Source of the DNA: Bdellovibrionota bacterium
Lineage (GTDB): Bacteria; Bdellovibrionota_C; UBA2361; CAKMMH01
Assembly (NCBI GenBank): GCA_050952645.1
Contig: JBMNLI010000010.1
Location: forward strand, 64,001 to 128,000
Reading direction: 5' to 3'
Length of the DNA: 64,000 nt
Position 1 is the first letter of the stretch. Every line of letters starts with the position of its first letter. Below, one piece after another: positions 43,430 to 48,722 of this stretch. A model generated the notes under the pieces. It made no database searches. It had not been told where the DNA came from and was given only the letters and a program-made list of their open reading frames with translations. The translations under genes were made by a program, and so were the position numbers.

Positions 43430-44152
43430 ATGGAAAATAAAAGCAAGCAAGACCAAAATTTTTATTCGCATTTAAAGGAGCTTAGAAAGAGAGCTTTTAT
43501 ATCGCTTAGCTTTATTGTCCTATTTGCGATTATTATATACGCCTTTTCTCCAGACATTATCAAACTTATCGATAAGCAATTTAAAAGTTATTTTCTAGAC
43601 ACGGATTTAATTGGCAAAAGCCCTATCGATGCTTTTTTAGTAAGATTAAAAATTTCTGCATTCTTAGGCTTTTTACTTTCTCTTCCTATAATTTTATTTG
43701 AAATATGGGAATTTATAAAACCAGGATTAATGAAGAAAGAAAAAAAATATTTTTTCTTATTTTTAACTATTGGAAGCTTTCTAGGAATAGGGGGCGCTCT
43801 TTTTTGTCATTTTTTAATAGTTCCTATCGCACTTAAATTTTTTTATAGTCAGTATAAACTACTTTCTTTAAAACCGATTATCCACTTTAACGATTATATC
43901 ACACTTATCATAAAGTTTGATGCTACTTTTGCTCTGATTTTCGAGCTTCCAATTATTCTAGTAATTTTAGCAAAATTAGATTTAGTAGATAGTACATTTT
44001 TAAAAAAATATTCTCGTCATGCAATACTAGTTATTTTTACACTAGCTGCTATTTTAACTCCGCCAGATGTGATAACTCAATTGCTAATGGCCATTCCGCT
44101 AGTAGTTTTATATTTTTTAAGCATCTACTTAGTTAAGATTTTAGTAAAGTAG
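43430..44152 (+). CDS. tatC: Twin-arginine translocase TatC
   Basis: Motifs HLKELRKR, FIKPGL, FELP and AAILTPPDVITQ. Confidence 0.96.
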   Translation: MENKSKQDQNFYSHLKELRKRAFISLSFIVLFAIIIYAFSPDIIKLIDKQFKSYFLDTDLIGKSPIDAFLVRLKISAFLGFLLSLPIILFEIWEFIKPGLMKKEKKYFFLFLTIGSFLGIGGALFCHFLIVPIALKFFYSQYKLLSLKPIIHFNDYITLIIKFDATFALIFELPIILVILAKLDLVDSTFLKKYSRHAILVIFTLAAILTPPDVITQLLMAIPLVVLYFLSIYLVKILVK

Positions 44153-44166
44153 TGAGCTTTGCCTTA

Positions 44167-44197
44167 CCTTAAATTAACATCTTAATTGACATTTAAG
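44167..44197 (+). repeat. 31-bp direct repeat, left copy (right copy at 48582-48612)
   Basis: CCTTAAATTAACATCTTAATTGACATTTAAG is identical on both sides of the nested element. Confidence 0.92.
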
Positions 44198-44217
44198 TCT
44201 TCACATTTTAAGTTAGC

Positions 44218-44629
44218 ATTATATCTCACGCCACGGAGCCTAAAAGAAAATCTCCGCAACCTAAAAAGCTAGCTCCAATTTTCTTTTAAGCTAACAAAAA
44301 ACAATTCATTAACATGATATATCTCACACCACGGAGCCTAAAAGAAAATCTCCGCAAACTAAAAAGCTAGCTCCAATTTTCTTTTAAGCTAACAAAAAAC
44401 AATTCATTAACATTATATATCTCACACCACGGAGCCTAAAAGAAAATCTCCGCAACCTAAAGAGCTAGCTCCAATTTTCTTTTAAGCTAACAAAAAACAA
44501 TTCATTAACATTATATATCTCACACCACGAAGCCTAAAAGAAAATCTCCGCAACCTAAAAAGCTAGCTCCAATTTTCTTTTAAGCTAACAAAAAACAATT
44601 CATTAACATGATATATCTCACACCACGGA
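44218..44629 (+). repeat. 98-bp tandem array, left part (4 units plus the start of the 5th)
   Basis: CCACG(G/A)AG anchors at 44231, 44329, 44427 and 44525, with the interrupted unit at 44623; units differ by only 1-2 substitutions. Confidence 0.95.
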
Positions 44630-45006
44630 ATAGGGTAGAGCGAGGGCTATACCCTCTCCCTCCCGTCTCACCGTACGTACGGGTCTCGTATACGGCGCTC
44701 CATTAATATAATATCAAGTAATACTCAGGTAATACGTCAAAGGGTCGATTAAACCAATTCGTTCCTTTGTTTTACGCCCCAATATTTTAGGGCTTAATGC
44801 ATAATTCACTACGTACCACGAACTGCGTCTATACCAGCCGAGTCTGCTGTTAGCAACCTTATAGATTTCTTCATTTCTAAAATTGCAACCAAGCATTCGG
44901 TTCAATTTCTTAAGATTTAGATCCTTAACTTTTCAAAAAAGTTCACCTAAACAAATAATCAATTAAAATAAATAAGAAATAATCGTTAAATTATGCATTT
45001 TTTTAC

Positions 45007-45035
45007 TTGCATCTGTGTATTTACTATGCTATACT
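45007..45035 (+). promoter_or_regulatory. Sigma70-type transposase promoter
   Basis: TTGCAT-17 bp-TATACT with an extended TG; AAGGAGG RBS before the ATG at 45068. Confidence 0.6.
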
Positions 45036-45067
45036 TTTAGTGCAACCGTTAACCTAAAGGAGGTTTT

Positions 45068-46756
45068 ATGAATTACAATCGAACAGTTCCATTACCAGAG
45101 CAAAGAAATAAAATAATTATAAGAGAAAAAGGGGAAGCAAAATATGTGCTTTTTGAATACGATCGCACTTATAATAAAGAGAAACAGTATACTAATCCAA
45201 AGCGTAGCGTTATTGGAAAATTAGTTGATGGTAGAGATGATATTATGTACCCTAATGACAATTATAGTAATTATTTTCCAGATGCCCCTATGCCCGAGAA
45301 ATTTTCAGACGCTTCACGCAGTTGTTGTCTTCGTATAGGTCCCCACTTGGTGATTGAAAAAGTAGCAAATGAATTTAATTTGCCTTTTTTACTAAAAAAA
45401 CATTTTGGTGAACGTAGTGAACTTATACTTGATTTAGCGAGTTATTTTATTGTAAATGAAGAGAATGTCAGTCAGTATTATCCAGACTACGCCTTTTCTC
45501 ATCCACTCTTTACAAAAGGTATGCGCATCTATAGTGATTCTACCATAAGTCGTTTTCTTTCTTCTGTTAGCAAAGAGCAGATAATTAACTTTCTTGACGA
45601 TTGGAACAAGGGAAAAGATCGCAATCAAATGGTTTACGTTTCATATGATTCGACTAATAAGAACTGTCAAGCAGGTGATGTTGAATTAGTAGAGTTTGGT
45701 AAAGCGAAAGACGAAAAAGGATTCCCAGTATTTAATTTATCCATTGCCTTTGATCAAACGAATAGAGTTCCGTTATTTTACGAAGAGTATCCTGGTTCTA
45801 TTACAGACGTTTCTCAATTTACTCATATGGCAGATAAGGTTATAGAGTATGGATATAAAAAGATAGGATTTATTTTAGACCGTGGTTATTTTAGTAAATA
45901 TAATATTCAATATATGGATAATAGTGGTTTTTCTTTTTTATTGATGGTAAAAGGGTGTAAGGCTTTAGTTTCTAAATTAGTAGAAGAAAACAGGAATACA
46001 TTTGAGTCTAAAAGAGACTGTAGTATTCGCTTATACAAGGTATATGGCACTACAGTGAAATCAAAATTATATGATGATGATAGTAAGGAGCGTTATTTTC
46101 ATGTTTATTTTAGTGCGGAAAAGCAAGCATTTGAGAGGGAGCAACTAGAAATTAAATTAGAGGAGTTTGAACAATTTTTAAAAAACCATATTGGCAAAGA
46201 TACAAAGTTTGGACAAACGTATAAGCAATTTTTTGATTTAAGTTATGACAATCAAGGAAAGTTAAGAAAAGTAGAAGAGAGAGCAGATGAAATTCAAAAG
46301 GCTCTTAATTTATGTGGGTATTTTTGTCTTGTTAGTTCGGAAGAAATGAGTGCTAAAGAAGCTATAATACTTTACAAGGGTAGAGACGCAACTGAGAAAC
46401 TTTTTGCTATTGATAAGACTTTTTTAGGCTCAAAAAGTATGAGAGTTCATTCATCTCAGGCAGTATCTGCTAAAATTTTTATAGAGTTTATAGCACTTAT
46501 AATTCGCAATCGCATTTATATTCTACTTAATGAAGAACTTTCTAAGCTAACAAAAAAGCCAAACTATATGAATGTTCCTGCCGCATTAAAAGAACTTGAA
46601 AAAATTGAAATGGTAAGAGGGAGTAAGGATTTATATCAGCTGAGCTATGCAGTAAGCAAAAGACAAAAAACTATATTAAATGCGTTTGATATAGATGCTG
46701 ATAAGGTAAGATTAAAAGCTGCTCAAATAAATAAAAAATTACAAAAAAAATTTTAG
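45068..46756 (+). CDS. DDE transposase (IS1634/IS4 superfamily)
   Basis: YDST, ILDRGYFS and YKGRDATEKLF (YREK motif); intact 562 aa. Confidence 0.92.
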   Translation: MNYNRTVPLPEQRNKIIIREKGEAKYVLFEYDRTYNKEKQYTNPKRSVIGKLVDGRDDIMYPNDNYSNYFPDAPMPEKFSDASRSCCLRIGPHLVIEKVANEFNLPFLLKKHFGERSELILDLASYFIVNEENVSQYYPDYAFSHPLFTKGMRIYSDSTISRFLSSVSKEQIINFLDDWNKGKDRNQMVYVSYDSTNKNCQAGDVELVEFGKAKDEKGFPVFNLSIAFDQTNRVPLFYEEYPGSITDVSQFTHMADKVIEYGYKKIGFILDRGYFSKYNIQYMDNSGFSFLLMVKGCKALVSKLVEENRNTFESKRDCSIRLYKVYGTTVKSKLYDDDSKERYFHVYFSAEKQAFEREQLEIKLEEFEQFLKNHIGKDTKFGQTYKQFFDLSYDNQGKLRKVEERADEIQKALNLCGYFCLVSSEEMSAKEAIILYKGRDATEKLFAIDKTFLGSKSMRVHSSQAVSAKIFIEFIALIIRNRIYILLNEELSKLTKKPNYMNVPAALKELEKIEMVRGSKDLYQLSYAVSKRQKTILNAFDIDADKVRLKAAQINKKLQKKF

Positions 46757-48386
46757 GTGAACTTTTTTGCAAAGTTAAGGTAGATAGATTCGTCTCGGCA
46801 ATTTCCACTGTTTAAGTATTATAACCCTCACTTTGTGTCTAAGCCATTGACCATATTTATCTATAAAAGTCTTAAGAGTTCCTATCTTATAATAGTTTAT
46901 CCAACCTTTAATTAACCAGCTTAGCTGTTGAAATGTCGAACCTAACGTTCGTGCCATTGCCTTCCGTCTACAAAGAATTTCTCTAGTTTTATCATAGAGT
47001 TTTCGTTTGCGATCTTCAGCAGGTTTACATTTCCAAGTTTTATACCCACTCTTCCAGTAGGTAAAGCCTAAGAAAGTGCTTTCCGTCGGCCTAGAGATTT
47101 TACTCTTACTTGAATTAATTTTAAGTCGTAGCTTACGCTCCAACCAACTCGCAACGGACTTCATTACTCTATTAGCAGCCTTTTCACTTCTAACAAATAT
47201 ATTACAGTCATCGGCATATCTAACAAACTTAAGTCCTCTTGCTTCCAGTTCCTTGTCGAGCTTATCAAGGTATATGTTAGATAATACTGGGGATAATGGA
47301 CCTCCTTGCGGAACTCCTTTCTCACTTACAGTAAACAATCCATCTTCCATTATACCAGCTCTTAAGAACTGTCTTATCAATCGTAGTGTCTTCGCATCTT
47401 TGATGCGTTCCCTGATTATCGAAATTAATTTGTCGTGATTAACAGTATCAAAATATTTCTCTATGTCTAGGTCTATAACCCAATCATAGCCTCTTTTCAA
47501 GTACTCAAGAGTTCTATATACTGCTAGATGGCAATTCCTTCTAGGTCTAAAGCCATAGCTACTATTACTAAAATACTTTTCGTATCCGCGTGCTAGTATT
47601 TGCGCTACCGCTTGTTGAATTACCCTATCTACTACTGTAGGTATTCCTAAAGGTCTCATCTTACCATTAGCTTTAGGTATATACACTCTCTTAACTGGAC
47701 TCGGCTTATAATTCCCTTCACGTATCTGAGATTTTATCTCTTCTCTGTGAACGGCAAAATAGTCTTCAAGCTCATCTACTGGCATATCATCTACACCAGA
47801 TGCACCTTTATTTCGCTTAACAGCCTTTATAGCCTCATCTATATTTTTGTCTGATATAATTAGTTCAATCAATTCCACCTGTTGCTCCTCCCTCTGTTTG
47901 TAAAGCTACTAGAAAACACCCCCTCTATCTTCTGCCCCCACAGGTTACGTTCCTGTTTGTTAGGCATATCTTCAATTTCGGACTCTTCTAGCCTTGCTTA
48001 CAGTGATTCACAATATATTAACGTTCAACCCTTCCTTGAGTGGTGTCTCAAGTACTATGGTATCAACTGACTTCCAGATATAAGCTTTATATCGCACGTG
48101 CATAGCACGCTATCTGGACCTCCCGGGGTAAGGCATAGTTCTTTCACCAGACAACCTCCAGATTTACTCGTTTGGTTTTACGTTTGTCTTTAGGGCTTCG
48201 GTTTGTAGCGCAACCTCACCCACCATTTAGCCTTGTATCTGGTTTCTGTTCGTAGGCTCCTTGGTTTTGATCCGCCACTTCCTTCACTCTAACATTACTG
48301 CTTCGAGCTTGTGGCATCACTACACTTGGTGACAACTACCCGTGACGGGACTTTCACCCGCTAGAACTATGTCGTGCCCGGCACAC

Positions 48387-48553
48387 GCCTAAAAGAAAAT
48401 CTCCGCAACCTAAAAAGCTAGCTCCAATTTTCTTTTAAGCTAACAAAAAACAATTCATTAACATGATATATCTCACACCACGGAGCCTAAAAGAAAATCT
48501 CCGCAACCTAAAAAGCTAGCTCCAATTTTCTTTTAAGCTAACAAAAAACAATT
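48387..48553 (+). repeat. 98-bp tandem array, right part
   Basis: The array resumes with GCCTAAAAG at 48387 and again at 48485. Confidence 0.95.
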
Positions 48554-48600
48554 TTTCTTGACCTACTTAAAACGTGAAGAACCTTAAATTAACATCTTAA

Positions 48601-48629
48601 TTGACATTTAAGGTAAATTTAGCTAATAT
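48601..48629 (+). promoter_or_regulatory. Probable tRNA-His promoter
   Basis: TTGACA-17 bp-TAATAT just upstream of the tRNA. Confidence 0.65.
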
Positions 48630-48645: not shown

Positions 48646-48722
48646 GGTGGATATAGCTCAGTTGGTAGAGCCCCGGATTGTGGTTCCGGTTGTCGTGGGT
48701 TCAAGTCCCACTATCCACCCCA
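48646..48722 (+). tRNA. tRNA-His (GUG)
   Basis: Cloverleaf with G-1, anticodon arm CCGGA-TTGTGGT-TCCGG, GTTCAAG and encoded CCA. Confidence 0.96.

Follow-up and report, generated by a model that had tools for sequence, protein, structure and literature searches.

A class C group II intron, interrupted by an IS1634-family element, in the hairpin array of a damaged ISL3-type MITE in a Bdellovibrionota genome

Introduction

B.h.I1 is a class C group II intron. Introns of this class (IIC) are described as recognising a DNA hairpin together with the short intron-binding sites IBS1 and IBS3 (PMC3898094, PMC8643678), and as usually lying after terminators or attC-type sites (PMC3898094, PMC8643678, PMC7306698, PMC12584367); the common description is of introns hiding behind terminators (PMC7306698). 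Mobile elements that use another repeated element as a target are also described: the insertion sequence (IS) IS1111 of Coxiella targets QMITE2 (PMC10969869), and there are IS-targeting introns, for example E.c.I4 (PMC3522654). Among MITEs (miniature inverted-repeat transposable elements), the ISL3 MITEs of Microcystis are reported with GGCTCTTCG ends and 8-nt repeats (PMC11448079), and BrickBuilt of Porphyromonas gingivalis is reported to carry a tandem array, a 23-nt minisatellite, between its MITE ends (PMC4596501). Here we describe a locus at which a MITE, a class C intron and an IS1634-family IS lie one inside another. It is found in a stretch of 64,000 nucleotides (the window; positions 64,001 to 128,000 of contig JBMNLI010000010.1) from a Bdellovibrionota bacterium whose genome is 1.95 Mb in 17 contigs at ~31% GC.

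The notable feature of this system is that the intron uses one MITE family as its usual target, the MITE hairpins likely replacing gene terminators. The history that we favour, and consider quite probable, is that an ISL3-type MITE settled at this locus, its hairpin was multiplied to six, a class C intron entered at the foot of the fifth hairpin by hairpin-guided retrohoming, and an IS1634-family element inserted into the reverse transcriptase (RT) gene of the intron, in that order.

Anatomy of the nested elements

The layers and their parts, in window coordinates, are as follows.

44166..44197, plus strand: direct repeat, left copy, 100% identical to the right copy
44198..44237, plus strand: damaged left arm of the MITE, with the terminal-repeat core at 44198-44213 (15/16 match to the right repeat)
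44238..44629, plus strand: array units 1-4, 98 bp each (Tandem Repeats Finder (TRF) period 98, 4.2 copies)
44630..48386, minus strand, 5' end at 48386: class C (IIC) group II intron (Rfam RF02001, 106.7 bits)
44630..44700, minus strand: intron domains V and VI
44714..44922, minus strand: severed 3' end of the RT gene, last 67 of 433 codons
44918-44922 (left) and 46781-46785 (right): target duplication TAGAT, 5 bp
44923..46780, plus strand: IS1634-family IS, 1858 bp (NCBIfam NF033559, 251 bits, cut-off 100)
44923-44951 and 46752-46780: terminal inverted repeats of the IS, 29 bp, 97%
45068-46756, plus strand: IS1634 transposase, 562 aa
46781..47878, minus strand: RT/maturase frame, first 366 codons (Pfam RVT_1 and GIIM; TIGR04416 411 bits, cut-off 300)
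48206..48209, minus strand: exon-binding site 1 (EBS1) guide GCUA in a domain-I stem-loop, intron nt 178-181
48387..48484, plus strand: array unit 5; its hairpin (48387-48440) lies immediately 5' of the intron, read on the minus strand
48485..48583, plus strand: sixth hairpin and MITE right arm, with the full right terminal repeat at 48565-48583
48581..48612, plus strand: direct repeat, right copy

A first-pass annotation of this DNA had drawn a four-level nest, with the array as a layer of its own. Its limits for the IS (44923-46780, in the RT gene, with TAGAT at 44918-44922 and 46781-46785) and for the intron (44630-48386, splitting one unit at CCACGGA|GCCTAAAAG) are exact. Its element types stand as well. 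We count three mobile elements instead of four, the array being amplified MITE hairpin. The array had been put at about six units between MITE ends; there are five full units and a sixth hairpin, and the left MITE end is damaged. The direct repeat does bracket the whole stack without a mismatch, at a length of 32 bp and not the 31 bp first given.

The intron begins GTGTG and finishes CTAT. By sequence and fold, the ribozyme features present are the GUGYG start, domain I, a short domain V with a CGC triad, and a bulged A in domain VI; the triad and the bulged A are hallmarks of class C. The intact RT frame is 433 aa long, and a structure ranking (not a tree) gives PDB 7uim and the GsI-IIC RT (PDB 6ar1) as its closest solved relatives, well above LtrA. 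No endonuclease domain was found: on the 367-aa part Pfam reported RVT_1 and GIIM and no other family, and the 63-aa tail frame gave no match. The RT, the ribozyme, the short EBS1-IBS1 pairing and the 5' hairpin together identify this, at the level of sequence, as an intron of class C.

There are 10 copies of the intron in the genome, 99.7-100% identical across the 5' part, and an alignment of all 10 shows 0-4 substitutions in ~1,894. Such near-identity at different sites would imply recent mobility. Once the IS and one TAGAT are removed, the copy in this stack has a length of 1894 nt, with a single difference from an uninterrupted copy, at 44668. In the 10-copy alignment and the fold, this change is private to this copy and opens the base pair at domain V's foot; four public runs read the majority letter there.

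The IS1634-family element is oriented opposite to the intron, and its insertion removes the last 67 residues of the 433-residue RT. The genome has 9 copies at 99.8-100%, and 9/9 have terminal repeats and AT-rich duplications of 5-6 bp, the length typical of IS1634. One of the nine is within an intron and none (0/9) is beside a MITE; the element would have landed in an AT-rich 5-mer regardless of the intron around it. Several IS1634 copies are located in short tandem repeats, and the TRF output for the genome comprises 1736 rows covering 75.9 kb (3.9%), 1699 of them with a period below 60.

This stack's intron copy is likely a dead end, because its RT is truncated, its domain V carries a private change and its MITE has lost the left tip. 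We also observed that single-base indels shorten the RT frame in 4/10 copies (C17:234170, C7:145559, C12:308926 and C17:116440); these may be long-read errors rather than decay.

The MITE family and its arrays

Ends of the MITE family start GGY-TCTTCACG; the genome has 216 end-like sites, and 400 kb of shuffled DNA has 0. MITE sequence makes up 1.3% of the genome, at 163 loci, in size classes of ~104, 156, 222 and 270 bp, with the hairpin in the 156 and 222 classes. Target duplications among 60 MITEs with paired ends are 8-9 bp in 32 (1 mismatch allowed), shorter in 4, 11 bp in 1, longer than 11 bp in 0, and lacking in 23. An ISL3 element at C10:339480-341339 (1860 bp; transposase NCBIfam 228.7 bits, cut-off 180) has ends identical to those of the MITEs and an 8-bp duplication, and the ~270-bp class has its right ~250 bp in common with this element. 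Because of the matching ends and the 8-9-bp duplications we class the family as ISL3-type, and an ISL3 transposase with the same ends would have moved the MITE. If the hairpin is viewed as a mobile module of its own, 43 of the 60 paired arms are close to scored MITE ends, and MITE-like flanks accompany most of the other 17. With these queries, neither the MITE ends nor the intron RT had a match in 5 relatives (80-94% complete), and 90 other genomes of the order gave no match to the ISL3 protein at E 1e-40.

The MITE at this locus is a damaged derivative and not an intact family member: it has no 8-bp duplication and its left tip is absent. The left terminal repeat has lost the outermost 1-3 nt, and the family end profile does not pick it up; by inspection, ~20 nt of family sequence appear to be deleted internally after it.

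Units 1-4 have 54-bp hairpins starting at 44238, 44336, 44434 and 44532, each with empty intron sites. The five full 98-bp units differ at 4 columns, by substitutions only. Folded as DNA, the unit beats 198-199 of 200 shuffles (z -2.9 on the plus strand and -3.8 on the minus strand), and the hairpin of unit 5 reaches -11.1 kcal/mol (z -4.5, 0/200 shuffles). The 98-bp unit is the interior of the 156-bp MITE class, its right arm rejoined to its left arm at a short AATT match with a few added bases, so the array is not a fourth element. The array could have started with a duplication at the AATT match between the MITE arms and then grown by slippage or unequal exchange. A 94-bp array on C15 has the same type of junction, and the first duplication may have happened either here or before this copy arrived.

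Tandem amplification is a habit of this MITE family. Ten of the 37 long-period (>=60) TRF rows, which are partly redundant, overlap a MITE, and arrays elsewhere in the genome have periods of 94-292 bp and repeat an internal part, the whole MITE with a 5-8-bp spacer, or the MITE plus flank. Further arrays of the family were seen at C10:293625-294238, C9:42988-43772, C10:199698-200457, C17:71283-71734, C7:144939-145558, C17:233760-234169, C12:187291-187662 and C15:89912-90099.

A regular series of imperfect hairpins with better pairing on the bottom strand, the one the intron uses, is also what a functional repeat locus might look like, that is, an integron attC cluster or a CRISPR-like array targeted in the way of IIC-attC introns. 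We give this reading almost no credence. There are no cassettes or unique spacers, the five units being near-identical throughout (4 of the 98 columns vary); the unit makes up the interior of a dispersed MITE; and the corresponding locus in a congener is bare.

Intron target sites

Nine of the ten intron copies are at the foot of MITE hairpins, six at one foot (MITE minus strand) and three at the other (plus strand). The tenth follows a compact GC-rich hairpin outside the MITE family. All ten sites have inverted repeats, and at the nine MITE-hosted sites these are AT-rich hairpins with interiors of 24-84 nt. In this stack no terminator-like site, as a Rho-independent terminator would give, was found on either side of the intron. 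Three of the nine MITE-hosted introns are within amplified arrays.

In 16 relatives, the EBS1 loop varies together with the last 4 bases of the exon; it pairs with its own exon at >=3/4 bases in 15/16 of them, compared with 22.5% of swapped pairs. A later domain-I loop was ruled out as EBS1, since it is common to relatives with different exon ends. Pairing is 3/4 bases at the MITE sites and 4/4 at the sole terminator-like site, and the first 3'-exon base is T at 9/10 copies. At this locus, the intron ribonucleoprotein would have recognised the hairpin, on single-stranded DNA, instead of a terminator, with EBS1 GCUA paired to AGGC at 3/4 bases and T first in the 3' exon. Either foot of the hairpin would be usable, on opposite strands, in keeping with the 6 and 3 copies found there. 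The G-rich strand is the sense strand in 8/10 copies, which fits a lagging-strand template and is not significant (P = 0.055).

The hairpin-plus-motif scan places 96 of 204 sites in MITEs and the strict-motif scan 115 of 203, and empty MITE sites of the two kinds number 46 and 55. A scan for a compact hairpin plus motif gave 48 non-MITE sites, mostly unconvincing as terminators among the 40/48 listed, and is not a count of free terminators.

The intron could have spread without homing to each site, by riding the MITE as an ISL3-mobilised unit or by gene conversion between MITEs. Six intron-bearing elements do have both MITE ends and an 8-9-bp duplication (0-1 mismatch), as a mobilised unit would, and a synonymous change described below is exclusive to the three second-foot copies. 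We nevertheless judge this improbable. Host MITEs, compared for 7/9 hosts and 16 empty copies (this locus and one truncated host excluded), differ by 7-30 substitutions in 200-224 columns, or 3-14%, and the introns that they carry by <=0.2% in substitutions. The nearest neighbour of a host is an empty copy for 6/7 and a tie for 1/7, and on the tree the hosts are interspersed with empty copies. Of the three second-foot hosts, two differ at 30/222 positions, and do so already within ~17 nt of the junction. The sites in use are two on opposite strands and one outside the MITEs. Because the hosts differ by 7-30 and the introns by only 0-4, the insertions were probably independent; on these sequence comparisons, independent retrohoming likely fits the divergence of hosts and introns, and joint transport of MITE and intron likely does not.

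The copy at C7:31331-33401 has a MITE 5' exon and a non-MITE, simple-repeat 3' exon, and either its host MITE is truncated or two intron copies have recombined.

Named relatives of the intron among the best 80 genome matches (59-77% aa) are mostly Bacillota. Of 160 related loci, 33 were inspected (search range 61-78% aa); their 5' exons, where readable, nearly all finish in a compact GC-rich hairpin and a T run; eight of these loci are one repeated site. On the Mogibacterium pumilum chromosome we noted eight related-intron loci (L023-L029, L045) whose upstream sequence is identical over >=292 bases and whose 3' side is masked; they represent an intron within a larger repeated unit or an assembly repeat.

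Order of insertion

The order MITE, array, intron, IS given by the first-pass annotation holds as a relative order, on the evidence of IS-free copies, flanking empty sites and a unit that is MITE interior. We place the IS last because 9/10 intron copies are without it and the joined IS-free form of the intron is present in four runs. Intact empty intron sites of the same kind flank the intron, four on one side and one on the other, which implies that at least 3 array units preceded the intron, unless there was unequal exchange with an intron-free sister copy. Among the empty alleles that the annotation had called for, IS-free introns and empty MITE sites do exist, and no same-species empty locus turned up; the 30 relatives checked for one were compared by gene order only, and uncovered bins in the four runs are uninformative.

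The 32-bp direct repeat

The repeat has only two copies in the genome, both at this locus. The right copy begins with 3 nt that also end the MITE right terminal repeat, and 27-29 of the 32 bp fall outside the MITE ends. It had been taken for the mark of the MITE insertion. Since family duplications are 8-9 bp, with 0/60 longer than 11 bp, it is not a duplication of the family type. Most likely it would have come from a later local rearrangement in which MITE and flank were duplicated and one MITE copy was lost, a weakly supported model; MITE-plus-flank tandems of 272, 280 and 292 bp occur elsewhere.

The MITE's native target is a perfect inverted repeat of 11 bp. Within it lies the -35 box of the likely tRNA promoter, and this box is preserved on the right side of the stack. 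The inverted repeat raises the alternative that the 32-bp repeat is a true insertion mark after all, made in one step by an ISL3 transposase that cut a native, tip-like hairpin at points 27-28 bp apart. The ends of the repeat coincide with the terminal-repeat tips (3 nt at one end and 2 nt at the other), and outside the tips it is nearly symmetric about the hairpin. We consider this unlikely: no paired copy among the 60 has such a long duplication, the native hairpin is weak (z -2.0, 9/200 shuffles), and a loss of 1-2 nt at the left tip would still be required.

Assembly support and evidence against the favoured history

Contigs in two studies cross the head-to-tail junction of the array with 0 differences and at ~4-5x flank depth, and the stretches that cross it are unique to this array. 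Relative to unique flank, depth in run X1 is 4.9 at the array junction, 10.0 over the intron and 8.7 over the IS, and in run X2 4.2-4.7, 10-12 and 6-7; these figures are rough, and X1 is possibly the source sample. The public runs that contain this genome are mostly metagenomes of digesters and bioreactors.

Several results weigh against the history proposed here. The first-pass annotation had looked to spanning long reads for confirmation, and no record in the four public runs spans the whole locus, so that the assembly is supported piecewise. A joint across the whole element, as in a same-species empty allele, is not listed in these runs either, and the 32-bp repeat has no independent read or contig support in them; an exact scan of metagenome contigs, which may miss near records, gave it 0 matches. 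At the junctions of IS and intron, the short side is covered by only 30 nt in two runs, one less than the bridging rule asks for. The 140-nt spacer of the congener, free of these elements, is unrelated in sequence except for promoter-like boxes. The only ISL3 element found has a 423-aa frame without a start codon and a 33-aa frame directly upstream, and it may be inactive, frameshifted, programmed or mis-assembled. The bias of 9/10 copies towards MITEs is largely target supply, with a leftover P of ~0.007-0.03, and the supply test is partly circular because site motifs were drawn from occupied sites. One synonymous change (alignment column 529, near the RT start) is found in exactly the three second-foot copies (C17:116440, C12:308926 and C7:31508), which independent homing does not predict; the chance is 1 in 120, and it was noticed post hoc. 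For the 32-bp repeat, the rearrangement model requires an extra loss of 1-2 nt and leaves unexplained why both repeat ends coincide with the tips.

An assembly artefact, in the array or in the direct repeat, would agree with the lack of a spanning record and with the long-read-type single-base indels that interrupt the RT frame of several further intron copies. We find it a shade less probable even than spread by a riding MITE. The array units carry private substitutions, nine other long-period arrays overlap the same MITE family, and the junction is crossed without differences in two studies by stretches found in this array only. The private substitutions and the junction-crossing contigs argue that the array is real.

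A broader version of the history that we favour can be offered, tentatively and as something we would sooner doubt than adopt. A class C intron of Bacillota may, in a new host, have switched from terminators to MITEs as landing pads that multiply themselves by transposition and tandem hairpins. It would prefer AT-rich, long-loop hairpins over better-pairing sites, its RT reading the foot of the stem only, and with ~100 empty sites the invasion would be under way. The 32-bp repeat would then reflect a cut by the ISL3 transposase across an end-mimicking hairpin.

Flanking genes

The nested elements occupy the spacer between two intact genes.

43430..44152, plus strand: tatC, left flank (Pfam TatC, 203 bits)
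48647..48722, plus strand: tRNA-His, right flank

The congener has the identical gene order, with a tatC/tRNA-His spacer of 140 nt that holds none of these elements. The stack has no visible effect on tatC or tRNA-His. A promoter-like site ahead of tRNA-His is at 48601-48629, with its -35 box in the right copy of the 32-bp repeat, and three relatives have a TTGAC box and a similar -10 region 5' of the tRNA. In two genomes of the same family (G002, G003), there is no tatC between a tatA/B-like gene and tRNA-His, a statement about this locus only. The first-pass annotation had remarked on a neighbouring tRNA gene, which is indeed present. A meaning in it is not supported, as only 4/163 MITE loci are within 150 nt of one of the 38 tRNAs; targeting of tRNAs by the MITE was ruled out on this count.

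Comparison with known systems

The stack neatly records three known mobile elements and is itself likely dead; what it adds is likely a modest variant in intron targeting. Our literature searches found no paper on IIC introns in MITE hairpins, though earlier work on hairpin targeting may cover non-terminator hairpins, and a term search of the MITE survey PMC11602168 returned nothing on the subject. One intron with one 4-nt guide at ten sites, nine of them long-loop and AT-rich, with ~100 matching empty sites, is a natural target set, and offers substrates at hand for testing how much of the hairpin a IIC RT requires. For class C introns, MITEs act here as a reservoir of targets that can be renewed.

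The IS1634-family element is like its family in transposase (above cut-off), length (1858 bp), terminal repeats and duplications, and nothing notable differs. The intron resembles class C introns (GsI-IIC, the source of the 7uim RT, B.h.I1) in its RT, for which no endonuclease family was found in the part scanned, its 4-nt EBS1, the T that comes first in the 3' exon and the hairpin directly 5'. It differs from them in that 9/10 copies use AT-rich MITE hairpins, at either foot and with 3/4 EBS1 pairing, and only 1/10 a terminator-like site. IIC-attC introns, as described in PMC3001079, likewise use a repeated non-terminator hairpin that belongs to another mobile system, but here the hairpin is the interior of a MITE, with no attC and no cassettes.

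The MITE family and the ISL3 MITE reported from Microcystis aeruginosa (PMC11448079) both start GGCTCTTC, and have 8-nt duplications and an ISL3 element with matching ends. In contrast to the Microcystis family as reported there, the family described here has longer shared ends (~19-21 nt), several sizes and frequent arrays, and is host to an intron, while the copy at this locus is without the 8-bp duplication and one tip. As with BrickBuilt in the account of PMC4596501, a tandem array lies between MITE ends, but here it is a 98-bp duplication of the MITE's own hairpin. Finally, the reports on IS1111 with QMITE2 (PMC10969869) and on E.c.I4 (PMC3522654) likewise have one mobile element target another, repeated one; the partners there are an IS entering a MITE or an intron entering a full IS, whereas here a IIC intron enters a MITE hairpin.

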